Of a stretch of DNA of 64,000 bases, positions 1-41,006 are shown in pieces. A program made the position numbers and the translations under genes. Below the pieces are notes generated by a model. It did no database searches. It was not told the origin of the DNA and saw only the letters and a list, made by a program, of their open reading frames with translations. How positions within the stretch are numbered: position 1 is the first letter of the stretch; each line of letters starts with the position of its first letter. Origin of the DNA: Actinomycetes bacterium (GTDB lineage: Bacteria > Actinomycetota > Thermoleophilia > BMS3ABIN01); contig JAJYXB010000022.1 in the NCBI GenBank assembly GCA_021791195.1, forward strand, positions 4,063-68,062, in the 5' to 3' direction.

Positions 1-1194
1 TGCGGGGTCATCGATCCGCATGGTGATCTTGTAAATGACATCGTTGGAAACCTGGAGGAATTTCAAAGGGTTGTCCTGGTCGAGATGACTGATCCTGAAA
101 ATATTATTGGTTTTAATCCTCTCGAACAGCAGGAAGGCATTGACCCTTACACGCAAGCCTTAGAACTTGTAGAAGTGTTCAGAAAGATTTGGAACCTGTC
201 GGATGATAAAACTCCCAGACTCCTCGAAATTTTGAGAAACGCTGTTTTGACGCTTATTGAAGCCGGTGGAACCATGCTCGATATCGAACCACTTCTAACC
301 AATCAGGATTTCAGGGAAGAGAAACTAAAGTTTGTGACTTATGAATCAGTGGCTTCTTTTTGGCGCAACCGATTTGATCAGTGGGAAGCAAAAGACCGAG
401 TTTCTAATGTGGAATCGACCTTGAATAAGGTTTCTTCCTTTACTTCTGATCCACGTATCCGCCTGATGCTCTCGGCACAGCAATCAACAATTGATTTCAG
501 GCAGATCATGGACGGAGAAAAAACGGTCCTCATTAACTTGGCAAAAGGTGTATTGAGAACCAACAGCTTTCTTTTAGGAGCTTTATTTGTGGCCAAAATC
601 CAAATGGCGGCAATGTCGAGGGTGGACTCACCGCCACCTGAAAGAAAGCCATTTTATTTGTACGTGGATGAATTTCAGAACTATGCGACTTTGAGTTTCG
701 CCGAGATTATGAGTGAGGCCAGGAAGTACGGTCTTTCATTAATTCTTGCTCACCAAAGCCTGGTTCAGCTCAACGCCGAGTTGCGAGATATTATTCTTGG
801 CAATGCCAAGAACTTCATTATTTTCAGATGTGATCGTCAGGACGCGGAACTGATAATCAAATACATTAAAGATTATGACCCCTGGGATTGGAAGTTGAAA
901 ACAGAAAGCTCGATTACCTACTTCTCAAAGGATGAACAATGGGAAGAAGGCATAGGCGAGCTAACTGGCATGCCGACGCAGGTCGCCGTTCTAAAAACAA
1001 AGGGTAAAGAGCCTACGATGTTCAGAACGTTTGACTTAGAAACCGGCTGGCGACTTGAGCAGAATCAAACTACCCTGAGAGAAGCCAACAAAGAGGCCGG
1101 ATATACTCTCAGCATGGAAAAGCTCGACGAAACCATACATTTTCAGGCTATGCCCATTCTTGAAACAGACGAGCCTGATAACTTCCTTATCTAA
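1..1194 (+). CDS. FtsK/HerA/TraG(VirD4)-superfamily P-loop NTPase, C-terminal part (5' end outside window)
   Basis: Frame 1 is open from base 1 (CGVIDPHGDLVND...) into the listed ORF 85..1194. It has a Walker-B-like FYLYVDEFQNY, an LILAHQS motif and a TraD/TraG-like C-terminal tail. Confidence 0.7.
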   Translation, partial: CGVIDPHGDLVNDIVGNLEEFQRVVLVEMTDPENIIGFNPLEQQEGIDPYTQALELVEVFRKIWNLSDDKTPRLLEILRNAVLTLIEAGGTMLDIEPLLTNQDFREEKLKFVTYESVASFWRNRFDQWEAKDRVSNVESTLNKVSSFTSDPRIRLMLSAQQSTIDFRQIMDGEKTVLINLAKGVLRTNSFLLGALFVAKIQMAAMSRVDSPPPERKPFYLYVDEFQNYATLSFAEIMSEARKYGLSLILAHQSLVQLNAELRDIILGNAKNFIIFRCDRQDAELIIKYIKDYDPWDWKLKTESSITYFSKDEQWEEGIGELTGMPTQVAVLKTKGKEPTMFRTFDLETGWRLEQNQTTLREANKEAGYTLSMEKLDETIHFQAMPILETDEPDNFLI

Positions 1195-2519: not shown

Positions 2520-3734
2520 TTAGTGAGTACGTTCTCGCTGTTTGACCAGATTAAGGAAGTCAGCGACATTGAGAAGCCATGCTTGCTGCGTGGGGATGTA
2601 TGTATCATGAAGGGGCGCTGGAATAACTAGACTGAGATGGTTCGCCTGCATCTCATCAGTCTGATTTATACTGATGCCTGGCTGAAAAGTTAAAAGGTGT
2701 TTATCTTCAATACGGTTTGCCTCTGCGAGAACCTGCCTCCACCTGTCTTTACAGGTTGTTTTTGCGCCAAGCATTGTCAGGTCTGCGGTTGAAAACGTGG
2801 GGTTTCGATAATCGTCAATACTTGGAAAAATGAAGTCGGGCTTGGAACGATTCTCGGTTTCCTGTCCTCGTGAATATCTTAAACCATTCTGGATTAGAAT
2901 CTGCTCGAAGTGGTTTTCTAACGCATGGCCAGCCCTGGATTTTCTCCGGTTTTGCACTGTTAAAGAAAGCTTCATGAACTCATCCACATCGGTAAAACCG
3001 GTTTGAATATGTTCCATCACGAGATGACGTTCAAGTGTTCGGAATAGTGCATCTTCCTTTTCCATCCAGGCTACAAGAGTAGTATCGGGGTTGTCCAGAG
3101 CATCGACACCACTCACGGCTTCTCGGGCAAACGCTGAGAATTCACGAGTGGTAGGAAAAGCTGCGCCAAATTTGCTTAACATGGTTTCAAGCGAAGCCTG
3201 CTCAGTCTCTTCTTCCTCAATGCCAATCTCTTCAAGAATCAGCTTTGCCGCATACCGAAGGGGAATTTCATCTATTTCTTCAGCTGGCTTGACGGACAAA
3301 GTACCCTCTGAAAGTTCAGGAAGATCAAAGAGCCACCGGACCTGTTGCTCCGCAGTACTCCCAGCTGCAGCAATCAATGAAAGAACTTCGCCATTCTGAA
3401 GTTTTCCCAGTACAAGAACGTCACCTTCCTGGGCAAGTTCGGAAACTGCCGTACTGGGAAAATAGAGTCGACATTCAGAACGTGTCGGGTGATTTTCTCT
3501 GGCGTCGTACCAGGTAATTGGAGCAGCTTCAACGACGGGGTCTTCTGCCGCGTCAGACATATAAAGAAAACGCGCCGGGATCTGTTGTCGTGGTGTACAC
3601 GGTCCGAGAACGGCCTGAATAGCCTGAATCCCGTTGAATTCATGCTGATGAGAACGTTCGGGATGAGCCTCGACAGCACTTAACCTCTTGGCTGCGATTC
3701 CCTCAAAATATTGCGATAAATAACCCTGTCTCAT
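2520..3734 (-). CDS. type II restriction endonuclease, EcoRII family
   Basis: The C-terminal half (VDEF...NRRKSRAGHALENH...KPDFIFPS...GAKTTCKDRWRQVLAEA...LLTFQPGIS) matches the EcoRII catalytic domain as I remember it. The N-terminus has KRLSA...HQHEFNG. The gene overlaps the vsr stop by 4 nt (ATGA) and lies in an operon with dcm. Confidence 0.88.
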   Translation of the reverse strand: MRQGYLSQYFEGIAAKRLSAVEAHPERSHQHEFNGIQAIQAVLGPCTPRQQIPARFLYMSDAAEDPVVEAAPITWYDARENHPTRSECRLYFPSTAVSELAQEGDVLVLGKLQNGEVLSLIAAAGSTAEQQVRWLFDLPELSEGTLSVKPAEEIDEIPLRYAAKLILEEIGIEEEETEQASLETMLSKFGAAFPTTREFSAFAREAVSGVDALDNPDTTLVAWMEKEDALFRTLERHLVMEHIQTGFTDVDEFMKLSLTVQNRRKSRAGHALENHFEQILIQNGLRYSRGQETENRSKPDFIFPSIDDYRNPTFSTADLTMLGAKTTCKDRWRQVLAEANRIEDKHLLTFQPGISINQTDEMQANHLSLVIPAPLHDTYIPTQQAWLLNVADFLNLVKQRERTH

Positions 3735-4189
3735 TTACTTTCCCATTTAATTTCCATTTTTACTGAATCGGAGCGAAGCCACATGGCAGTCTCTTCAACA
3801 ACTGTTTCAATTGGCCTCTTCTTTGGCCCACGAAACGAGCATTCCCATATTGTGAGAACACGCCATCCCAGCTTCGCGACTTCGGTTCTGCATTTCTTGT
3901 CATTCTCTCGGTTCCTGGTAATTTTATCACGCCAGAATTCTGTATTTGATGCAGGCCATTTGAACAGGGGGCAATTATGTCCATGCCAGAAACATCCGTT
4001 TACAAATATTACTGCGTGGTAGCGTGGCAGAACCAGATCCGGCTTGCCAGGAAGGCGGGAATCATGCAGACGGTAACGAAACCCTTTGGCAAATAGTCCC
4101 TTCCTGATAGCAAGTTCCGGCTTGGTATTCTTGCCGCGAATACCAGCCATCATCCGGCTTCGGACTTCAGGAGGAACTATATCAGTCAT
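3731..4189 (-). CDS. vsr: very short patch repair endonuclease
   Basis: Typical Vsr sequence: RSRMMAGIRGKNTKPE, RLPGKPDLVLPRY..VIFVNGCFWHGH.C, FW..KI..N..RD. Confidence 0.95.
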   Translation of the reverse strand: MTDIVPPEVRSRMMAGIRGKNTKPELAIRKGLFAKGFRYRLHDSRLPGKPDLVLPRYHAVIFVNGCFWHGHNCPLFKWPASNTEFWRDKITRNRENDKKCRTEVAKLGWRVLTIWECSFRGPKKRPIETVVEETAMWLRSDSVKMEIKWESK

Positions 4190-4211
4190 TTACGATTCAG
4201 GGCAGGATGAA

Positions 4212-5513
4212 TCAGACATAAGCTGGGGCATCCTCATTAATATAAATACCATCTTTCTCTTTTTGGCTCAATGATTTTTTGCCATTCCGCTTTAGAAGGC
4301 ATCCATTATCCTTTTGATGTAGATGCCAGTTCATTACAGCCACAATTTCTTTTCCAACGGCTTCTATCACAGCCGGAACTACTGCATTTCCAAACTGTCT
4401 GTATGCCTGGGTATCGGAGACTACCTGGGGAAAGCCATTGGTATGTCCAAATAAGCCCGCCCTTTCCTCATCGAAGCCCATCAACCTTGCCGCTTCAAGG
4501 GGGGTCAGGCGACGGGGCCTTTTTCCGTTCTGTCTTATCAGGATCTCTGAGCCGTCCTTGTAATATCTCGCGCTCATTGTACGCGCTATATCATCAGGTC
4601 CAACCAGTCCGTAACCAAAACCATTTCCTTTAGCCTTGTGTCGTTTGGCATATTCTTTAAGGTAGTTCCATAGTTTGCTTGAAAGCATATACTTGCTGTC
4701 TACCCTTTCCTCAAGAATGTTTTTTAAAAGAGGCCGTTCGTTATTCGAGATTTCGGGAAAAGAAAATGGCGGGTTGTCTCCAAAAACATTACGGTCAAAG
4801 CAGACAATCATTACACGTTCGCGATGTTGCGGGACAAAAGCAGCCGCGTCAATAATATTGACAAATACCTTGTAGTTCAGTTCTTCCGTCAGGGTTGAAT
4901 GTATTACATCCCAGGTGCGACCACCGTCATGGGATTTCAGGTTCTTCACATTTTCAAGAAACACTACCGGTGGCCGCTTGACTTCAATAATTTTTGCAAG
5001 TTTGAAAAACAGATTGCCCTGCTTCACATCATCAAAGCCATGGGCATGACCAAGGCTTTTCTTCTTTGAAACTCCCGCGATGGAAAAAGGCTGACATGGA
5101 AATCCGGCAGAAAGAAGGTCATGATCAGGAATTACCCGCGCAATGTCAGCATCTGTCTTTAGTTCGTTAATATCGCCGAAAGGCTTTTCCCCAAACCAGC
5201 GCATGTATGTCTTCTGGCTGTATTTGTCATACTCGCACGACCATAAGCATCGACCACCGGAACGATTAAGGCCGACGCGAAACCCGCCAATACCGGCAAA
5301 TATATCTATGAAAGTGAACGGAAGGGCATTCGGGATGACCACGGGGGAGGGCATCAGTTCGTCAAATAGAGATGGAGAATCTTTCGCAATAGCAGCATCT
5401 TCAAGAATGCCGAGAAGGAATTCCTTCTGCGTCATCCGTTTCCTGTAGCTTTCCTCTTCAATCCATGCCTTTACATTTGCAGGTAGATCGCGGATTAGTA
5501 CCTGTTTTGCCAA
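4212..5513 (-). CDS. dcm: DNA (cytosine-5)-methyltransferase with ribbon-helix-helix-like N-terminal extension
   Basis: C5-MTase motifs are present: I FIDIFAGIGGF, IV GFPCQPFS, VI ENVKNL, X QFGNAVVP. About 60 extra N-terminal residues (KQVLIRDLPANVKAWIEEESYRKRMTQKEFLLGILE) look like an Arc/CopG-type RHH. TTG start with an AGGAGG RBS. Confidence 0.93.
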   Translation of the reverse strand: MAKQVLIRDLPANVKAWIEEESYRKRMTQKEFLLGILEDAAIAKDSPSLFDELMPSPVVIPNALPFTFIDIFAGIGGFRVGLNRSGGRCLWSCEYDKYSQKTYMRWFGEKPFGDINELKTDADIARVIPDHDLLSAGFPCQPFSIAGVSKKKSLGHAHGFDDVKQGNLFFKLAKIIEVKRPPVVFLENVKNLKSHDGGRTWDVIHSTLTEELNYKVFVNIIDAAAFVPQHRERVMIVCFDRNVFGDNPPFSFPEISNNERPLLKNILEERVDSKYMLSSKLWNYLKEYAKRHKAKGNGFGYGLVGPDDIARTMSARYYKDGSEILIRQNGKRPRRLTPLEAARLMGFDEERAGLFGHTNGFPQVVSDTQAYRQFGNAVVPAVIEAVGKEIVAVMNWHLHQKDNGCLLKRNGKKSLSQKEKDGIYINEDAPAYV

Positions 5514-6022: not shown

Positions 6023-8665
6023 TTGGAAACGATGAACAATAATAATAAAACAAACGCAAAAGAATATCTTCGCGAATACCAGGCAAAACAAGGGGTACCT
6101 GCCTGGTTGGGTTTGTTGATTGGCAAAGCTAACGATAACAATGGAAGTCTTTCAGAAGACGAAAAAAATGAAATATTCTCTGACCTTCTAAAAGAAAACG
6201 GTCTTAAAACCGAAGGCCGTGCTTCCAATGAAGAAGACGTGCTATTCGTAGAACCTCAACCTTCTGTTGCTGAATCGCCTGACACGATAACTCTTGAAAA
6301 GATCAAGCATGTAAAAGGAGTAAATGCGCTTATACCTGGCCAATCCATCCAATTCAGTTCGGCTTGCACAATTATTTATGGGATGAATGGTACCGGTAAG
6401 AGTGGCTATTTCAGGATAATCCATGAACTGGCTGGTGGAGAGCAGACAAAAAGTATATTAGACAATATCCATCAAGATACAGATGGCCTAGAGGTCGAAA
6501 TAGAATATTCCTCAGATGGTAAAAAAAAGGATTGTTTCAAATGGCAAGATAAGTCTAGGAGAGGAATACAGCCCTTTGACCTTATACGAGTGTTCGATTC
6601 CGAATACTTACCGATTTTTCTAAATGAACGAGAGAGTTCGGTCAACGTAGAGCCTCTCGGCTTAAATCTCTTTCGGGTAATTGCATCCATCGTTGATGAG
6701 TACAAAGTAAAACTCCAGGAACTTGTTAAGCAGACGGAGCAGCTAGAACCGGATTTGAGTTTTTTAATTGACGCCCTACATTCGGATTCATTGAGAGGAG
6801 TTTTCCAAAAAAAGGTTTTATCAGAAGCAGATAAGAAGATAGTCGAAAGCAATATAAAATTTAAGGACGACAAGACAACCAAACTTGCTGAGTTAAGGCA
6901 ACAACGGCAGAATCTTGAAAAGAATAATACAGAAGACACAAAGAAAGTCCTAAGGCAAGAAAAAGGCGAAATTGATGATCTAAAAAATCATTTAGATGAG
7001 CTTGCGAAAACTCTGCCGCTATTGTCCAAAGATACTGAAGAAACCATATCCAACTATCTTGAAAAAAAGAGAGTTCGGGATGGAAGAGCAACACAATTTG
7101 AAGTACTTAAATCCATACCTGGTAAAGATTCCGAAGAATGGCAAAATTTCATTGAATCTGCAGAAGAATACATAGACATAATGGACCAAAGTGTCTTAGA
7201 TAAAGATAAGAACTGTATTTATTGCCATCAGCCCTTAAACGAAGAAGCAGGCAAACTAGTCCGGGCATATTCTGAGTATTTAAGCGACCAATCACAGGCG
7301 GAATTCAAAGAAGCAATGGAAGAGATTGAAGCTTTGCAGTCACGAATAGATGACATAGACATCGAAATTTCTTTATCTGAGGAAATAAAAGCTACTTTAA
7401 ATGATACTGGAAAAGATGCAGGTGAGGCACTGACGGTTTCGGTAAACAATGTAATCACAGTGGCGAAATCGAAGAAGACCGAGTTGTTGGCTGCATTAAA
7501 ACAAAAAAAGGTAATTAGCGAGGATTTTGTTCTGGACCTGCTTAGCCTGGATCAAAAATTGACAGAGCTATCTACCCAGAAAAAAATTGCCATTGATGAT
7601 TTGGCAAAAACGGGAGAGGAAAAAGCGAAGAAGATTGCAGAAATCGAATCTGCAATAAATGATCTTGAAGATAATGAAATAATCGCAAAATCTAAATCTA
7701 AAATCGAAAGCTATTTTGAATGCTGCAAGACTGCTGATGGGATAAATAAGATCAATAAAACAATAAGTACGCGAGCGATAACAGAATTAGGTGGAAAAGC
7801 TCACGACGAACTTTTAACCGATTCGATTAGAAAAGCTTTCGAGGATGAACTTAAGGTGTTGGGTAATGACGTTGGCGTAAGTCTCAATAAAGCAAGAGCA
7901 GGGAAGGGCAGTGTAAAAACCAGACTCACGATTTCAGGCAAAGATGTTTGTGATATTTTAAGCGATGGCGAGCAAAAGGCGGTTGGTCTAGCACTTTTCC
8001 TTGCCGAAATCGAAAGCCAAGACGATGATTCACCAGTCGTTTTTGATGATCCGGTCACTAGTCTTGACCATCGGGTTGCTGATTCTCTAGCAAAAAGATT
8101 GATTCAAATGTCAGCAACTAAACAAATAATTATTTTTACTCATAATAAGCTTTTTTATGATTCGCTAGTCTACTGGAGCAATAAGCTAAAAGATGCACAG
8201 AACAATAAGACACATCATATTTGTAAAAATTACACGCAGAAAGGCTGCAATGGATCGGGTTGCCATGTAATCACATACACTGTTGATCGCGAAGCGAAAG
8301 ATAGAACAGGCAAAATATTTGAAGCACAAAATGAATCATGTGCTTATTTCATTGAACAAGCTGAATTTGAAATAAAAGGGCAATATACGAAAAGTACTGT
8401 AGCCCAATATCTAAAGTCCGCTATAGAACATTACATAGATGAGAAAGTATTGTTAGGGACCGGTTTATTGAAAGATAGGCGCCAAGGGGCCGGAATACCC
8501 TGGCAAAGTCTAAAAAAAATCGAGTCCAAGAAGGAGATCATAGAAAAATTAGAAGGATTCTGGGCCGACTTGAGCAATCGTGCTTCTCATTCCACATCTG
8601 CCTCTCGGCTTAACCCATTATCAGATGAGGATTTCCGAAATATGATTGCTTTCTTGAAGCAGTAG
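6023..8665 (+). CDS. AAA_13-type ABC ATPase with coiled-coil zinc hook (RloC/PrrC-like, putative anticodon-nuclease-type defence protein)
   Basis: Walker A GMNGTGKSG (6380-6403). About 450 aa of Lys/Glu-rich coiled coil with a central CIYC (7214-7225). ABC signature LSDGEQKAVGLALF and Walker B/D-loop SPVVFDDPVTSLD. A C-terminal ~180-aa domain has HHICKNYTQKGCNGSGCH and NRASHS. The true start may be the ATG at 6032. Confidence 0.8.
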   Translation: METMNNNNKTNAKEYLREYQAKQGVPAWLGLLIGKANDNNGSLSEDEKNEIFSDLLKENGLKTEGRASNEEDVLFVEPQPSVAESPDTITLEKIKHVKGVNALIPGQSIQFSSACTIIYGMNGTGKSGYFRIIHELAGGEQTKSILDNIHQDTDGLEVEIEYSSDGKKKDCFKWQDKSRRGIQPFDLIRVFDSEYLPIFLNERESSVNVEPLGLNLFRVIASIVDEYKVKLQELVKQTEQLEPDLSFLIDALHSDSLRGVFQKKVLSEADKKIVESNIKFKDDKTTKLAELRQQRQNLEKNNTEDTKKVLRQEKGEIDDLKNHLDELAKTLPLLSKDTEETISNYLEKKRVRDGRATQFEVLKSIPGKDSEEWQNFIESAEEYIDIMDQSVLDKDKNCIYCHQPLNEEAGKLVRAYSEYLSDQSQAEFKEAMEEIEALQSRIDDIDIEISLSEEIKATLNDTGKDAGEALTVSVNNVITVAKSKKTELLAALKQKKVISEDFVLDLLSLDQKLTELSTQKKIAIDDLAKTGEEKAKKIAEIESAINDLEDNEIIAKSKSKIESYFECCKTADGINKINKTISTRAITELGGKAHDELLTDSIRKAFEDELKVLGNDVGVSLNKARAGKGSVKTRLTISGKDVCDILSDGEQKAVGLALFLAEIESQDDDSPVVFDDPVTSLDHRVADSLAKRLIQMSATKQIIIFTHNKLFYDSLVYWSNKLKDAQNNKTHHICKNYTQKGCNGSGCHVITYTVDREAKDRTGKIFEAQNESCAYFIEQAEFEIKGQYTKSTVAQYLKSAIEHYIDEKVLLGTGLLKDRRQGAGIPWQSLKKIESKKEIIEKLEGFWADLSNRASHSTSASRLNPLSDEDFRNMIAFLKQ

Positions 8666-8815: not shown

Positions 8816-9667
8816 ATGAATGACTTTCAATCTATAAGAGATATATTTACCAACAGGGAAATAGCGGCATTTTTCTGGATCTTCGTAATCCTCATTTGGC
8901 TAATTTTTAGTAGTTCGGTAAGGGGATCACTCCTTGGAGTATTAAAAGCTTTTTGGAACAAATATATTGTCATTTCTATCGTTGCAATGTTGCTATATTC
9001 ATCAGTACTGGTCTTTGTTTTTCATAAGTTCAATCTATGGCACGCTTCTAACATCAAAGATACAATTTATTGGTTTTTCGGCGTAGCATTCGTGATGCTC
9101 GTGAATGTCAGTAAGGCCGATGAAGAAAATTACTTTAAGCGACTTCTATTAAGCAGTCTCAAATTAGCTGTATTCTTGGAATTCTTAATTAAGCTATATG
9201 ATTTTGATTTATGGTTGGAGCTGATCCTAGTTCCATTTATTACTCTAGTGCTGATGCTGATGGTCGTAGCCGGAACTGATGAAAAATATTCTCAATTGCA
9301 TAAAATCTTGGAAAGAATCCAAGTAATATTCGGCTTATCAATCTTGATATATGTTGCATACAAACTTGTCGGTGATTTCAGCGGGTTTGCCACCCTAGAT
9401 CACGTTCAGGAGTTTCTTCTGCCACTAGCCCTAACTGTTGCTTACTTGCCTTTTATTTACGCAGCCGCTCTGTATTCAAAGTATGAAGAAGTATTTGTAC
9501 GGCTTCACATACTTAATGATGACCAAGAGCTCGTCAAATTCACTAAAAGAAAGATTATGCTTAAGTATCATTTCAAACTTGGCGGACTGTCTAAGTGGGC
9601 GAAGAAGAGAGGGGCGTTGAAAGTAAAAACTAGGAGAGATGTTCTAGAATTGGTCAACGACGAATAG
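8816..9667 (+). CDS. hypothetical polytopic membrane protein (about six TM helices)
   Basis: 283-aa ORF with repeated hydrophobic 18-22-aa segments and a basic C-terminal tail. I recognise no family. Confidence 0.6.
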   Translation: MNDFQSIRDIFTNREIAAFFWIFVILIWLIFSSSVRGSLLGVLKAFWNKYIVISIVAMLLYSSVLVFVFHKFNLWHASNIKDTIYWFFGVAFVMLVNVSKADEENYFKRLLLSSLKLAVFLEFLIKLYDFDLWLELILVPFITLVLMLMVVAGTDEKYSQLHKILERIQVIFGLSILIYVAYKLVGDFSGFATLDHVQEFLLPLALTVAYLPFIYAAALYSKYEEVFVRLHILNDDQELVKFTKRKIMLKYHFKLGGLSKWAKKRGALKVKTRRDVLELVNDE

Positions 9668-10155: not shown

Positions 10156-11688
10156 ATGACTTTGCAAGAAAAGGCCATGAAATGGTGGGCCGAAAAAACT
10201 AAACAACATAAGTACGTCGTTTCTTCGGGCGAAATCCCAGATCAGAGGCAACGAGATTATCTCAGGAAACGTAGGCTGATCTTCAAAGTGTCCCGAGGTT
10301 GCTGGATTCTCAAACGGCCAGAGGATGAAATCGTCGACGTCTTCCCTCTTTTATACTGGCAGGCCATAGAACTGATCCTCACCAATCACAAATGGTCACT
10401 GCGGGGCGAATCCGCACTTTCAGTATATGTCGGAGACCAGGCAGCCCAGAAACGCCTTACTGTGAAGACTCAGGATAAAACCAACAGAACAATTTCATTG
10501 CCATTGGATTTTGAGATTGAACTCAGGCACGACCCTCATTTCGATGATCGACTGATCAGAAAGCAGGACATCGTTGGCATCCAGATTCCAGTGGCAATCC
10601 CTGAGCTAGTATTTGTTGATATCAATAAAATGCCACTCAAGGAAGTTCGTAGCTTTATTGCCGGTACGGATTTTGACAAGAGAATGCTCGCGGCGATTTA
10701 TGCTACCAGTCCCAAGCCCGTTATTTTCAAGCGCCTTATGGAACTTTCAAAAAATGCCAAAAGACCAGACCTAACTGAGGCCCTAAAGAAAATAATCGAA
10801 GATTACACGCATTACCAGGTCGTCAAGAAACAGAGAGGTGAAGCTAGGCCCGTATTAGAAAAGCCCGCCGCATTGTCTCCTCCCTGGGTTATTAGGCAGG
10901 AGCAACAAGCAAAAGAATTTGAAGATGCCCTAAACAAGCACTTGAAGCCGAAGATTGCCCGGATAAAAAAGCAACCGCTCAGTCAGCTCTTAAAACAAGC
11001 CAGGGAACATAAGAAATACGATACTTACCATTCCACCTCGCTTGAGGGATACAGAATTACTCCGGAAGACGTCGACGTGCTGCTTTCTGGTCGTATTCCC
11101 AAGAAAGAAAGAGGCAATGGTGCCGAGCATCTTGAGCAGCTGAAAAACCGGATGGCGATCATTGGCTATTCGGAAGCCTTTGATTTCATTTTGGCCACGG
11201 CCAAGCAAGCTTTCGAAAAACCCCGTATTACTGAGGATTTTATAAAAGACACTTACTCCAACCTCTTTAAGCCCTCTACCGACGCAGGCATACTTGACTA
11301 CTACAGCCTGACTGCATACCGGAGCATACCCGTATATATCAGGGGAACGCGCTATGCGCCGCCCTCTCACGAAAAGCTGCCGGAATTAATGGCAAGCTAC
11401 GTGAAGCTTGTAAGTGAAGTCAAGAATCCTGTTGTGAGGGCGATCCTGGCGCATTACTTCTTTGTTACCATCCACCCATATCTAGATGGCAATGGCAGGA
11501 CAGGAAGACTGCTCATGAATTATCTCTTGATCTCTGCCGGTTATTCCTGGGTGACCATAAAGACCGAGCAGCGAGGGGAGTACTTCGAAGCTTTGGCAAA
11601 GGCGCAGTTAGACGAGGGGATCCTGCCTTTTGGGGAATTTATCTTGTCGGTGCTGAAAGAGGCGAGCAAGGATAAGAAATCAGGCTAA
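10156..11688 (+). CDS. Fic family protein (class II, with alpha-inh motif) fused to an AbiEi-like N-terminal domain
   Basis: Fic motif HPYLDGNGRTGR (11473-11508). Inhibitory motif STSLEG = [ST]xxxE[GN] (11032-11049). The N-terminus (YLRKRRLIFKVSRGCWIL...ESALSVY) resembles the AbiEi antitoxin wHTH domain. Confidence 0.9.
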   Translation: MTLQEKAMKWWAEKTKQHKYVVSSGEIPDQRQRDYLRKRRLIFKVSRGCWILKRPEDEIVDVFPLLYWQAIELILTNHKWSLRGESALSVYVGDQAAQKRLTVKTQDKTNRTISLPLDFEIELRHDPHFDDRLIRKQDIVGIQIPVAIPELVFVDINKMPLKEVRSFIAGTDFDKRMLAAIYATSPKPVIFKRLMELSKNAKRPDLTEALKKIIEDYTHYQVVKKQRGEARPVLEKPAALSPPWVIRQEQQAKEFEDALNKHLKPKIARIKKQPLSQLLKQAREHKKYDTYHSTSLEGYRITPEDVDVLLSGRIPKKERGNGAEHLEQLKNRMAIIGYSEAFDFILATAKQAFEKPRITEDFIKDTYSNLFKPSTDAGILDYYSLTAYRSIPVYIRGTRYAPPSHEKLPELMASYVKLVSEVKNPVVRAILAHYFFVTIHPYLDGNGRTGRLLMNYLLISAGYSWVTIKTEQRGEYFEALAKAQLDEGILPFGEFILSVLKEASKDKKSG

Positions 11689-11751: not shown

Positions 11752-11928
11752 AGGCGCAAAGATATTGACAGTTAATTTTGCTGTGAGAAAATGAATGAGG
11801 ACTAAATGAGGCGGGAATTAACCGTTCCAGAGGCTACGCAGAGACCTTCTTCAAGTGCCGTTTAAGGCTATTTAAAAGTAAAATATCGTCTTTGAGAGTG
11901 TTTGAATAGCGTAGCAGGTGGTCTACCA
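11752..11928 (+). repeat. direct repeat copy 2 (~177 bp), at the island/core junction
   Basis: See copy 1. TTGACA (11765-11770)-N16-GAAAAT is conserved. The repeat lies 130 nt from the stop of the first GC-rich gene. Confidence 0.85.
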
Positions 11929-12060
11929 CTTTCTTTCGGCTCCGCATTCCAGCTTTCCTGCTCAGTGTTTTTGCCTGCGCCATTCCTCTTTTCCCGTGAT
12001 GATCCCCGTAAAGCACACCGCATGTCAAGTTAAGCGAGGTTAAGCTGGCTGACTTGCCCG

Positions 12061-14130
12061 TCAAGGGAACTTCATCCCGCCGATCTCGCTGAAGCTGCTT
12101 TTATAGAGGACCCGCTGGGTGACGATCAGCGGTTGGCCGTTGGTGGAGACGATACGCACGGGGCCGCCCATGGTTTCGGAGTAGGAGACCGGGAGCTGGC
12201 CGCCCGCGGGCACAGCGATATTCTGCTGGGTCGGGGTCGGGCTGTTGGCGATGTAAACGTCCACCGAGGCGTCGCTGGCGCCCCGGTTCATGATCATGAT
12301 CCAGTTGCCGCCCATGCCGTCGGGGACCTTGGAATCATACCAGGTGAACCAGAGATCGGTGCCGGCGTCGCTGGCGGTCAGGCCCTGCATCTCCTTGAAA
12401 CTGTCCTGGTAAATGGTGCGCTCGCTGACGATGAGATGCTTGCCGTTGGTAGAGGTGACCACGACCGGCCCCCCGATTTTTCCCGGGAAGATCGGAGTGA
12501 CGCGGCCTCCTTGCGGCACGGTGAAGAAATCGTTGGCAGGATTGGCTGGGTCGTGCATCTTCTGGTTGCCGATGAAAACATCGACGGTTGCGTCACCGGT
12601 GTCCTGATTGCCGATCAGGATCCAGCTGCCCTTCATGCCGTCCTGTACCGTATTGTCGTACCACGGGAAATAGTACGTGGACGCCAGCGAGCCCGCCGGA
12701 ATTCCCAATGTTTCACTGAAGGAGTTGAGATAGATCACCCGCTGGCTGACGATCAGCGGCTGGCCGTTGGTGCACTGCACCTGCACGGGGCCGCCCATGA
12801 TGCCTGGATAATTCGGCGTGACGCGGTCACCGGGGGCGATGCTGTAATTGTAGGTCGCGTTCGTGCCGTTGGGGCCGGCGCCGTTGATAGAGACGGTCAC
12901 GTTCGCCGTGCTGGAGCCCATGTTGCCGATCAGGATCCAGTCGCCGCCGATGCCATGCGAGGAGTTGGAGTCATACCAGGTGAAATAATACGTGCTCGCC
13001 AGGGCGGTATCGGCTACGGCTGGCGTCTCATTGAAAGAGTTCTGGTAGATCGAGCGCTGGCTGGCGATCAGTGGCTGCGTCGCCTGGACCGTGACCGGAC
13101 CGCCCATCACTCCCGGGAACGCGGGCGTCTGAGCCGGCGCTCCCACGGCGATGTCGCGGTCGGCGTAGGTGTTGGCGCCTACCAGCGCCGAGACGTGAGC
13201 GCTGCCAGCCCCTACGGCCGGGTTGGCCATAAGTACCCAGTCCGAAAGTCCCGGGGTCTGCTGGTCGTACCAGGTGAAGTAATAACGCTTTGCGGGCGTG
13301 AAGTTGTCGACAGTCACCGTGGTTGTACCGGACTGCGTGGTCAGGCCAGCGGTGTCATGCGCGACTGCGTAAAGGGTATGCGTCGAGCCGTTGACCAGCC
13401 CGGTCGTATTCCAGGTATAGGAATAGGGCGCCGCTGTCGGGCTTGCCACCAGCCGGCCGTCGACATAAAGATCTACCTGCATCACCGCCACGTTGTCGGC
13501 GGCGTTCGCGGTGACGTTGACAGTGCCGCTTACCTTTGCGCCACCAGTGGGAGAGGGGACGCTGACGGTGGGGGGCGTATTGTCCACCGAGACGCCGCCG
13601 AAATCCGTGGTCCAGTACCAGTGATAGGTCGAAGCGCCGTTGTAGTGCCTGCTGATGCCGATGGCGTTGTAATTCGGGTCCAGCATGTTGGCGTTGTGCT
13701 CTGGCGAGTTCTTCCAGGCGTCGAATGCCTGCTGGGCGACGAATTCACCATTATTCTGGTTGGAGACGTAACCGGCCACGATATTCTCGCCCAGATAGGT
13801 GTTATACGTATAGCCGGCCCAGCGCATGCGGTCGAAAGGAGAACTTCCGTCTGAGCCGGTATGGCTGAAATAGTTCATGTTCGCCATGTCGGTGGAATGC
13901 CAGTTGGCCGCCGTGGAGAGCCTGGAATCGAGGGTGAGCCGCTGCAGCCCGCTCTGCTGGCGGTAGTTGTTGATCAGTGTCAGGAAATAAAGCTCCTGAC
14001 TGTCATAGGCGTGAGCCGCCGGCGCCGACGCCAGCAGGCCGGCAAAAAGCGCCAGGGTGCACAGCGCCGCCAGCAGAGCCAACCAGAGGCTGTGCTTTCC
14101 TCTTCCGGTGATTTTCCAGTTCGGCCTCAT
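12061..14130 (-). CDS. secreted CAP/SCP-domain protein with Ig-like domain and four ~100-aa tandem repeats
   Basis: Signal peptide ...APAAHA|YD. CAP/SCP-like region (LINNYR...YFSHTGSDGS...GENI...WKNSPEHNANML). Ig-like segment (PPTVSV...TVTVDN). Four repeats of (Y/W)FTWYD...W(I/V)LIGN...GGPV.V....QPLIVSQR.IY.(N/S)SF.E. Confidence 0.85.
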   Translation of the reverse strand: MRPNWKITGRGKHSLWLALLAALCTLALFAGLLASAPAAHAYDSQELYFLTLINNYRQQSGLQRLTLDSRLSTAANWHSTDMANMNYFSHTGSDGSSPFDRMRWAGYTYNTYLGENIVAGYVSNQNNGEFVAQQAFDAWKNSPEHNANMLDPNYNAIGISRHYNGASTYHWYWTTDFGGVSVDNTPPTVSVPSPTGGAKVSGTVNVTANAADNVAVMQVDLYVDGRLVASPTAAPYSYTWNTTGLVNGSTHTLYAVAHDTAGLTTQSGTTTVTVDNFTPAKRYYFTWYDQQTPGLSDWVLMANPAVGAGSAHVSALVGANTYADRDIAVGAPAQTPAFPGVMGGPVTVQATQPLIASQRSIYQNSFNETPAVADTALASTYYFTWYDSNSSHGIGGDWILIGNMGSSTANVTVSINGAGPNGTNATYNYSIAPGDRVTPNYPGIMGGPVQVQCTNGQPLIVSQRVIYLNSFSETLGIPAGSLASTYYFPWYDNTVQDGMKGSWILIGNQDTGDATVDVFIGNQKMHDPANPANDFFTVPQGGRVTPIFPGKIGGPVVVTSTNGKHLIVSERTIYQDSFKEMQGLTASDAGTDLWFTWYDSKVPDGMGGNWIMIMNRGASDASVDVYIANSPTPTQQNIAVPAGGQLPVSYSETMGGPVRIVSTNGQPLIVTQRVLYKSSFSEIGGMKFP
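12064..13284 (-). repeat. four tandem ~100-codon repeats inside the CAP-domain gene
   Basis: Repeat starts are at YYFTWYDQQ, YYFTWYDSN, YYFPWYDNT and LWFTWYDSK. Conservation is at protein level; the DNA copies have diverged. Confidence 0.8.
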
Positions 14131-40904: not shown

Positions 40905-41006
40905 TGAAGGTGAAAAGGGCAAACCACTCGCGAGGGTGGGACGCAAAGCCTCAGGACCGGACTGCTTGTATTTGGTAATAATGTCTGGTTGGCTGGGCTG
41001 CCACCA
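40905..41006 (+). promoter_or_regulatory. c-di-GMP-I (GEMM-I) riboswitch aptamer
   Basis: GGGCAAACC (40917-40925), a CCACUC-GCGA-GGGUGG hairpin with a GNRA loop, GACGCAAAGCC (40940-40950), and a second helix GACCGGAC/GUCUGGUU. This is near-identical to the conserved core of the V. cholerae Vc2 aptamer as I remember it. Confidence 0.72.

Follow-up and report, generated by a model that had tools for sequence, protein, structure and literature searches.

We found that the gene at 6032..8665 (+) of the window, by which we mean the whole 64,000-nucleotide stretch of DNA analysed here, encodes an ABC ATPase of the AAA_13 type that carries a coiled coil like that of Rad50 and a predicted zinc hook, CxxC, and that, by profile matching, it is a member of the catalogued RloC-like candidate phage-defence family PDC-S06. 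On balance we favour the reading that its product is a second-line (abortive-infection) defence protein of the RloC type that consists of a single polypeptide, carries a HEPN-like RNase tail and stands behind an EcoRII restriction-modification (R-M) system. PADLOC already lists the family, under the name PDC-S06, and a 2013 paper reported its R-M/Fic neighbourhood, so the find will not surprise a specialist. It is worth attention because the candidate subfamily is very large and because its tail does not follow the canonical HEPN motif. The features of the gene are given below in the numbering of the 877-aa protein; residue numbers in the first-pass annotation of this DNA are higher by 3.

6032..8665, + strand: whole gene, 877-aa RloC-like / PDC-S06 ATPase, stop TAG at 8663-8665
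6053..6202, + strand: N-terminal helical module, aa 8-57 (...YL..Y....P.WL.LLI...), from clade-wide conservation
6203..6295, + strand: variable low-complexity linker, aa 58-88, from alignments A1 and A7
6296..6676, + strand, boundaries approximate: ABC ATPase head N-lobe, aa ~89-215, with Walker A GMNGTGKS at 6380-6403
6677..7201, + strand, boundaries approximate: coiled-coil arm 1, aa ~216-390, from composition and periodicity
7214..7225, + strand: CIYC predicted zinc-hook motif, aa 395-398, in the middle of the insert, from conservation
7247..7831, + strand, boundaries approximate: coiled-coil arm 2, aa ~406-600, from composition
7832..8320, + strand: ABC head C-lobe, aa ~601-763, with the signature at 7958-7975, Walker B/D-loop at 8036-8068 and H-loop at 8135-8143
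8216-8269, + strand: Cys-rich strand region HICKNYTQKGCNGSGCHV within the head C-lobe, poorly conserved
8321..8662, + strand: C-terminal helical HEPN-like domain, aa 764-877, the presumed effector, from conservation, hhalign and an AF2 model
8414-8428, + strand: Lys795-x3-Glu799, conserved C-domain pattern
8573-8590, + strand: Ser848...Arg850-x2-His853, C-domain key residues
within 8321..8662, + strand: other C-domain key residues, Asp803-Glu804 and Arg816/817

The open reading frame spans 6023..8665 (+) and gives 880 aa when counted from its first mechanical start, TTG 6023. In the database copy of the protein (P0001), translation begins at ATG 6032 and yields 877 aa. We prefer ATG 6032 because the N-termini of homologues, which read MNxxxKxHAKDYL, match it; a weak GGA is present 5 nt upstream. 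ATG 6032 is thus likely to be the start of the gene, and TTG 6023 merely the first start that a mechanical count meets. The 877-aa protein has 108 homologues, many at E = 0, so the reading frame and its motifs are not chance, and every motif listed in the first-pass annotation proved to be real. Between 5400 and 10200, promoter-like sites do not rise above shuffle expectation, and terminator-like sites occur at about twice expectation.

The ABC head is split, as had been claimed: Walker A (GMNGTGKS, aa 117-124) is followed only after an insert of ~385 aa by the signature (LSDGEQ, aa 643-648), the Walker B/D-loop (VVFDDPVTSLD, aa 669-679) and the H-loop with its switch His (FTH, aa 702-704). 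Across 37 homologues neither the ABC motif residues nor the two hook cysteines vary; the invariant positions of the homologue alignment include G117, N119, G122, K123 and S124 of Walker A. Pfam AAA_13 matches at 6.4e-25 and covers residues 116-736 only. The insert, which we read as an antiparallel coiled coil, is K/E-rich (24-25%) and nearly Pro-free with heptad-like periodicity, and segments of ~175 and ~195 aa lie on either side of the central CIYC. Arm 1 contains 25% K+E, 38% charged residues and 3 Pro, also with heptad-like periodicity; arm 2 contains 24% K+E and is free of Pro. Both C395 and C398 are conserved in 37/37 homologues, in agreement with the earlier proposal of a Rad50-style coiled coil with a central CxxC, and distant relatives read C[ILV][LY]C[HRQM]Q at the hook position.

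The protein shares its head motifs, coiled coil and CxxC hook with Rad50/SbcC, and a PDB sequence profile search with the whole protein returned Rad50 and SMC heads, as would be expected of a Rad50/SbcC-type DNA repair protein. We regard a repair function of this kind as extremely improbable. The PDB matches cover generic ABC-head motifs only, the N- and C-terminal domains are absent from Rad50, the distribution of the family is patchy, and the window gene sits inside a low-GC island of defence-type genes, with no Mre11/SbcD-like gene within 10 kb of it or in loci L001-L006.

Outside the ATPase, the first-pass annotation had described a ~110-aa N-terminal extension that it could not assign. 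The extension matches no Pfam or PDB sequence profile, but it is better described as a clade-conserved module of ~50 aa followed by a variable linker. Y12, L13, W25, L29 and I30 are invariant in alignment A1, and Trp25 hardly varies among 26 diverse sequences. The linker columns (aa 58-88) are unconserved and variable in length in alignments A1 and A7. The same annotation had placed a Cys cluster in the C-terminal effector, an assignment that we do not retain: of 37 homologues, 28 retain C731, 19 retain C739 and 11 retain C744, one subfamily lacks the cluster altogether, and the strands at aa 729-765, modelled at low confidence (pLDDT 53-66), come ahead of the helical tail. H729 is invariant. 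As modelled, the Cys-rich strand region probably belongs to the ATPase head.

Membership of an RloC-like defence family, which had been proposed from the architecture, is borne out by PADLOC. The PDC-S06 model PDLC04892 matches over the full length of the protein (E 2.4e-206, 686 bits, residues 9-879 against profile positions 2-837 of 843), and matches at 1e-93 to 6e-107 were obtained with another three PDC-S06 models. PDC-S06 is a PADLOC single-gene candidate catalogued by guilt-by-embedding in defence systems, and in a published table B. cereus proteins that PADLOC calls PDC-S06 are called RloC by DefenseFinder. The PADLOC PrrC model (PDLC02360) matches only the Walker B region, residues 666-727 against profile positions 168-226 of 372 (E 1.8e-8). 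P0103 is a natural hook-less short form in which the PrrC model also matches the Walker B region only; we considered P0103 as a PrrC and rejected this, as it is still PDC-S06. Membership of MADS was likewise rejected, the matches to mad3 and mad8 being weak and confined to ATPase domains.

We found that the C-terminal domain, which had been called atypical, is not peculiar to this gene; it is a family-wide module of ~115 aa present in about 2,900 clusters. A C-domain profile finds 2,917 clusters (at 50% identity), all of PDC-S06 architecture, and never recovers PrrC-type proteins. Shorter hits of 364-512 aa were C-terminal fragments of PDC-S06 proteins in 10/10 cases checked. Across 39 diverse sequences His853 is invariant and Glu799 is present in at least 90%; the residue four positions ahead of Glu799 is basic, Lys795 here and Arg in most relatives. 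Ser848 is conserved along with His853, but the Arg of NRASH is not, and in the Arg850 column family members variously have R, K, G or E. In profile alignments the C-domains are homologous across the clade (hhalign to the C-domains of distant relatives: 97% probability, E 8.8e-11), and many distant C-domains have a canonical Rx4H at the aligned place, for example CCRYMEGH and LSRYIEGH. The earlier statement that the spacing is non-canonical for HEPN (Rx4-6H) is therefore correct for the window protein, which reads R850-x2-H853, but it does not extend to the distant homologues and it rests on an Arg that is not conserved.

To what fold does this domain belong? Pfam AAA_13 and the PrrC model both end before the C-terminus and no HEPN or other Pfam model matches the tail. 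When we scanned 29 C-domains of the window subfamily and 10 mainly distant ones against Pfam at E <= 10, we obtained scattered weak chance hits, none of which passed a Pfam cutoff, and no HEPN-clan family, and the C-terminal part of the AAA_13 profile did not align to these isolated domains. A PDB profile search with the C-domain gave noise and no HEPN match. The AF2 model of the C-domain has pLDDT 87 and pTM 0.83, and its top Foldseek match is 2q00 of the HEPN-T family (prob 0.97, E 0.23, TM 0.54), which is non-significant. About 12 HEPN entries, among them 2q00, 1wwp, 6m6w, 3o10, 8xeh, 1wty, 9bj7 and 7ae2, are found in the top 50, mixed with generic helical bundles and none at E <= 1e-3; HEPN is the sole recurring functional class among the fold matches, at E >= 0.2. 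Foldseek against viral structures returned nothing informative. The HEPN core is a four-helix up-and-down fold, and four-helix bundles match promiscuously in Foldseek. According to the HEPN survey, the HEPN family of 2q00 lacks the R and conserves the H, and some accepted HEPN families are without the Arg.

RloC, studied in Geobacillus kaustophilus and Acinetobacter baylyi, is a zinc-responsive anticodon nuclease that excises the wobble nucleotide and is inhibited by zinc. Catalytic triads have been validated by mutation in RloC (R692/E696/H737, G. kaustophilus) and in PrrC (R320/E324/H356), and on comparison with these published positions the small helical domain at the C-terminus of the window protein repeats the pattern basic-x3-Glu...His, a putative counterpart of the triad. 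Like RloC, the window protein is one polypeptide whose ABC head is interrupted by a coiled coil with a CxxC hook. It differs from RloC in its extra ~90 aa of N-terminal module and linker, in having Lys at the place of the first triad residue, in a Glu-to-His distance of 54 aa as compared to 41 aa, in the Rx2H spacing, and in that Pfam AAA_13 ends before the C-domain. PrrC, the EcoprrI-linked tRNA-Lys anticodon nuclease of E. coli, likewise combines an ABC ATPase with a C-terminal Arg-x3-Glu...His pattern; in contrast to the 877-aa window protein, it is ~400 aa long and has no coiled coil or zinc hook.

A different effector chemistry is possible, but from conservation and the model we lean towards a degenerate HEPN-type RNase. 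The first-pass annotation had gone as far as suggesting that the chemistry may differ from that of RloC and PrrC, and this suggestion can be kept only in part, as the basic-x3-Glu...His pattern is retained, distant homologues have Rx4H, and the top folds, though non-significant, are HEPN. One could go further and take the C-domain to be an enzyme of another kind (DNase, nucleotide-degrading or protein-modifying) that resembles a helical bundle, with the family being an RloC sister with a new effector. Three observations are consistent with such an enzyme: sequence searches connect the domain neither with a HEPN family nor with PrrC, its spacing is Rx2H with Lys replacing Arg, and its fold matches are non-significant. 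We nevertheless think it quite unlikely, given that both the pattern and its architectural position mirror RloC and PrrC, that homologous domains in relatives have the canonical Rx4H, and that no functional class other than HEPN recurs among the fold matches.

The genes around the window gene that bear on its function are as follows.

2520..5513, - strand: divergent type IIE R-M operon, presumed first-line partner
4212-5513, - strand: Dcm methyltransferase (Pfam DNA_methylase 1.8e-75; PADLOC)
3731-4189, - strand: Vsr (Pfam Vsr 1.5e-30; PADLOC)
2520-3734, - strand: EcoRII-C endonuclease (Pfam EcoRII-C 1.1e-68; PADLOC)
10156..11688, + strand: Fic/Doc-family protein, SoFic-like, 1.5 kb downstream (Pfam Fic 1.3e-17; PADLOC SoFic 9e-29)

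The EcoRII-type operon of Dcm, Vsr and EcoRII-C had been placed about 510 bp away, and we measured the gap as 509 bp to TTG and 518 bp to ATG. The operon is divergent and not co-transcribed with the gene, and any functional link between the two is putative. A guard role behind R-M is that of PrrC and is presumed here. Some relatives (L037, L040, L047) have the order hsdM-hsdS-gene-hsdR, exactly as prrC does; the window gene, in contrast, has no type I hsdMSR embedding, and its type II neighbour is divergent and does not surround it. Linkage to R-M loci, which is occasional to frequent for RloC, is also a real and recurrent property of this family, as previously suspected, with R-M genes flanking or embedding the gene at several loci. 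In a Legionella relative the order is hsdS-hsdR-gene with a 6-bp gap, and other relatives adjoin HpaII, AlwI, EcoRI-MTase/GmrSD-HNH and HNH genes. By a tally over loci, about 70% of relatives lack an R-M gene at a distance of up to two genes. The Fic gene is a recurrent neighbour as well: Fic genes adjoin homologues in L013, L014, L029, L042, L079 and L094, with a putative functional link. The order in the window is EcoRII R-M, ABC ATPase with helical tail, and Fic, and this trio or pairs from it recur in L013, L014, L029 and L042. Anantharaman et al. (2013) describe neighbourhoods of R-M, RloC-like ABC-HEPN and Doc/Fic genes as multi-level (three-level) defence; the likeness to these is one of gene arrangement.

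The neighbouring proteins are diverse. When clustered, 212/288 were singletons, for which reason we replaced clustering by per-protein Pfam counts; HNH/GmrSD, PDDEXK, YhcG and Fic genes are often among the neighbours. A 283-aa membrane ORF and two ORFs without assignment were rejected as partners of the window gene, having no homologue in other loci. The frequent presence of nucleases and Fic is relevant to the idea that the protein is a sensor-only ATPase, which would detect DNA ends or phage proteins as do its analogues Lamassu LmuB, Gabija GajA and PARIS AriA, with a non-catalytic, regulatory or partner-binding C-domain, and would leave the killing to a nearby nuclease or toxin (REase, HNH, PD-(D/E)xK or Fic). 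The unconserved HEPN Arg fits this idea, as the HEPN survey predicts that motif-less domains are non-catalytic binders, and so do weak PADLOC matches of the head to LmuB, AriA and PtuA. On the other hand, the singletons leave no conserved single partner, PADLOC lists the family as a single-gene candidate, and an invariant His with a near-invariant Glu across ~2,900 clusters looks catalytic, not structural. Stand-alone copies are found on Staphylococcus plasmids, from which we argue that the gene works alone. We consider a sensor-only role unlikely.

Our favoured reading of a self-contained second-line defence protein suggests the following course of events. In the resting state the ATPase and hook would hold the C-domain silent. 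A phage-caused disturbance, with DNA ends or breaks or lost activity of the co-resident R-M system as candidate triggers, would alter the nucleotide or oligomeric state of the head. Two C-domains could then pair to form an active RNase site that needs no metal; Glu799 and His853 would lie at its centre, joined by Lys795 and perhaps by Arg850 or Arg816. The substrate would be tRNA, with the anticodon loop as the probable point of cleavage, or some other essential RNA, so that translation would halt and the infection abort.

The R-M types found alongside relatives include I, IIP, IIE, IIG and HNH/GmrSD-type. As these are very different from each other, a shared physical partner in the manner of EcoprrI could not serve all of them, which raises the question of how an RloC-like guard senses restriction failure or DNA damage generically. 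A more specific proposal, which we put forward tentatively and rate well below our favoured reading, is that the clade defined by the N-terminal W-module, zinc hook and C-domain (~850-aa proteins, at least 2,900 clusters at 50% identity) forms a sister group distinct from RloC, in which catalysis would rely on a non-canonical set of residues (basic-x3-Glu and His, no obligatory Arg). Such proteins might cut a target other than the tRNA-Lys anticodon, and the N-module might sense the state of the embedding R-M system. If so, the clade would be a general guard against anti-restriction.

Relatives are present on 191 plasmids, 82 of them conjugative, and the island that contains the window gene also carries a TraG-D_C / coupling-protein-like ATPase. 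Both observations are compatible with housekeeping of a mobile element, that is, with an AAA_13 ATPase for plasmid/ICE transfer or maintenance that is carried alongside the TraG-like gene. However, most loci have no relaxase or T4SS linkage, R-M and other defence genes predominate in the flanks, and the family itself was catalogued through its embedding in defence systems; we hold a housekeeping role to be very unlikely. The clade reaches Patescibacteria, and relatives are found on clinical Klebsiella, Pseudomonas and Staphylococcus plasmids, where effects on phage sensitivity would be of some relevance to phage work.

An ORF call on the window confirmed the frame at 6023–8665 (+), in which the first-pass annotation had recognised a RloC/PrrC-like ATPase. 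TTG 6023 is merely the first mechanical start codon of this ORF; the true start is likely ATG 6032, because the homologues begin with MNxxxKxHAKDYL and the identical 877-aa protein in public data (P0001, on 23 contigs) begins there. In the 877-aa numbering, we found the following motifs:

aa 117–124, Walker A, GMNGTGKS
aa 395–398, hook, CIYC
aa 643–648, signature, LSDGEQ
aa 669–679, Walker B/D-loop, VVFDDPVTSLD
aa 702–704, H-loop, FTH

The ABC motifs and CxxC were thus read correctly, and each is invariant in a 37-sequence alignment with identity down to 29%; both hook cysteines are kept in 37 of 37 homologues. The segments separating the head lobes are 24–25% Lys+Glu, nearly free of Pro and heptad-like in periodicity, in agreement with the proposed coiled coil.

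The Pfam AAA_13 match is limited to residues 116–736 (E 6.4e-25), the PADLOC PDC-S06 model PDLC04892 matches the full length (residues 9–879, E 2.4e-206) and the PADLOC PrrC model aligns only at the Walker B region. PDC systems come from a guilt-by-embedding study, which lists them as "untested phage defence candidates". PDC-S06 is the PADLOC name for the broad RloC family, since a survey of the Bacillus cereus group gives the same proteins, in a supplementary table, as RloC (DefenseFinder) and PDC-S06 (PADLOC). A literature search found no published experiment on PDC-S06 or on this subfamily, and the gene is a further member of a catalogued, computationally described family of candidates.

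The ~180-aa C-terminal region previously taken as the effector falls into two parts. Residues 764–877 (the C-domain) are modelled as a separate helical domain (pLDDT 87, pTM 0.83), and residues ~712–763 are predicted with low confidence as short strands (pLDDT 53–66), which we read as the probable terminal strands of the ABC head. This strand region holds the Cys cluster ascribed to the effector; because the cysteines are kept in 28, 19 and 11 of 37 homologues and the cluster is absent in one subfamily, it is, judged by conservation, not a conserved metal site.

Across 39 C-domain sequences, including relatives at 24–27% overall identity, His853 is invariant, Glu799 is kept in at least 90%, and the residue four positions before Glu799 is basic (Lys in the ATPase and close relatives, Arg in most others). 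This basic-x3-Glu...His arrangement repeats the triads validated by mutation in RloC (R692/E696/H737) and PrrC (R320/E324/H356). The terminal NRASH had been singled out as a motif that does not fit canonical HEPN spacing; its His is the invariant His853 and its Arg is not conserved in the same 39 sequences. In distant relatives, however, the aligned position carries a canonical Rx4H (e.g. CCRYMEGH, LSRYIEGH). When the C-domain set of the ATPase was compared with that of the distant relatives, profile to profile, they matched at 97% probability (E 8.8e-11). The degenerate HEPN-like motif is a family trait, not a peculiarity of this locus. The C-domain was recognised by no Pfam or PDB sequence profile, and Foldseek with its model gave no significant match; HEPN proteins are at the top of the non-significant matches (2q00, prob 0.97, TM 0.54) and recur among them (1wwp, HepT 6m6w, sacsin HEPN domain 3o10, 8xeh, 1wty, AbiV 9bj7, 7ae2). 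A passage on the HEPN family of 2q00 describes it as lacking the Arg with the His kept. A C-domain profile search returned 2,917 clusters at 50% identity; in the best 150 matches the domain is always C-terminal, in proteins of ~850–900 aa or shorter products, and ten of ten shorter carriers checked were gene fragments (none PrrC). By these matches, the C-domain is a large, self-contained family, and a putative HEPN-type RNase is its best-supported reading.

The N-terminal extension contains a helical module (residues ~8–57) with a nearly invariant Trp, followed by a variable linker. The module is common to the whole clade, including the relatives at 24–27% overall identity, and the suggested Pfam search, like a PDB sequence search, gave no match; a role in sensing or partner binding is a guess. 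A natural short form (P0103; L094 7001–8566; 521 aa, 38 member sequences) keeps this module, the ABC head and the C-domain without the coiled coil or CxxC hook. Its gene comes directly after the one for a 1,523-aa ATPase_2 protein, and a Fic gene lies upstream.

The divergent EcoRII-type operon was found as described (Dcm methyltransferase, Vsr and EcoRII-C endonuclease), 518 bp from ATG 6032. In several loci of close relatives, R-M genes lie directly upstream on the same strand: hsdS-hsdR in Legionella (6-bp gap), a HpaII system with Vsr in L011, AlwI in L019, an EcoRI-like methyltransferase with a GmrSD_N/HNH enzyme in L009 and L014 (a pair that recurs in L039 and L045), and an HNH gene in L017 (2-bp gap). 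We surveyed 78 genome loci from many phyla, scanning two genes per side singly against Pfam. The commonest upstream families include Methylase_S (7), N6_Mtase (6), HsdM_N (4), HsdR-type domains, GmrSD/HNH (3), EcoRI_methylase (2), RE_AlwI (2) and RE_HpaII (1); downstream they are HSDR_N (5) and other HsdR domains. Among labelled references, HsdR is immediately downstream in L037, L040, L047 and L066 and HsdS/HsdM upstream in L037, L040 and L047, so that these last three have the prrC layout, hsdM-hsdS-gene-hsdR. By our count, an R-M gene lies no more than two genes away in at least 20 of ~75 distinct loci. The proposed R-M link therefore recurs in relatives, far above expectation from the small genome share of R-M genes, though not in all of them. 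The window and six other loci (L013, L014, L029, L042, L079, L094) have Fic genes in the vicinity; a passage of a 2013 paper describes an R-M, RloC-like ABC-HEPN and Doc/Fic neighbourhood as three-level defence.

Relatives occur on 191 plasmid records, and none was found in phage records. A copy on one Staphylococcus plasmid stands by itself, in keeping with a one-gene system that is self-sufficient. The chief alternative, a sensor-only ATPase partnered with a neighbouring nuclease, is disfavoured because no partner is conserved and because the C-domain has an invariant His and near-invariant Glu. A RloC-type second-line defence protein best accounts for the observed architecture, conservation, family membership and genomic context; its RNase activity, substrate and trigger are inferred. 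The Rad50-like head and hook would sense a phage-caused disturbance and then free or assemble the RNase at the C-terminus, so that translation would stop. Candidate triggers are DNA breaks, which have been shown to act on A. baylyi RloC, or restriction failure, as in the case of PrrC.

A DUF2130 gene adjoins the ATPase gene in three unrelated genomes (Pfam-confirmed; L007 7402–8811, L021 3854–5119, L023 6717–7985) and, by BLAST clustering only, in a fourth (L077 918–2177). On K. pneumoniae plasmid pKA9-4 (L097 2918–5608), ~1.2 kb separates the tmexCD1 efflux genes from the gene of an 896-aa relative that shares the N-module and has a CVLC hook and an LRGTVE...H tail. This match (24.8% identity, query residues 364–712) is repeated in all listed rows for Klebsiella and Pseudomonas plasmids; plasmid matches number 39 and 40, respectively.

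The ATPase gene lies within the window's first ~12 kb, where G+C is 38–48% as compared to ~56–69% (typically ~62%) in the rest, and this region is therefore, on composition, a horizontally acquired island. G+C rises sharply (~46% to ~61%) at ~11900–12100, the right edge; the other edge is beyond the window, near a contig end in GCA_023379285.1. No tRNA gene was found anywhere in the 64-kb window. Other features are:

85–1194 (+), first ORF, C-terminal part of a 455-aa TraG-D_C/HerA-like ATPase
1231–1779 and 1817–2440 (–), ORFs of 182 and 207 aa, flanked by the TraG-like and EcoRII endonuclease genes
8816–9667 (+), 283-aa protein, several hydrophobic helices; encoded between the ATPase and Fic genes
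10156–11688 (+), 510-aa Fic-domain protein; PADLOC SoFic, 9e-29, over the C-terminal half
40909–41006 (+), c-di-GMP-I-GGC riboswitch aptamer, 59.9 bits, just over the gathering score of 59

On the full contig (L002 1322–5163), PLDc_2 (391 aa) and PIN_4 (432 aa) genes precede the TraG-D_C gene; there is a weak PADLOC mad8 match, and the three genes may form a module of their own for defence or mobility. The 182- and 207-aa ORFs matched no Pfam, PADLOC or NCBIfam family and no homologue in the other fetched loci; the 283-aa protein had no family match and was not found beside ATPase homologues elsewhere. The long N-terminal region of the Fic-domain protein has no assigned family. The Dcm methyltransferase (4212–5513, –) has an N-terminal extension of ~60 aa, MAKQVLIRDLPANVKAWIEEESYRKRMTQKEFLLGILEDAA, ahead of the Pfam domain, which by eye looks like a ribbon-helix-helix DNA-binding segment; related loci have a separate HTH controller gene in its place.
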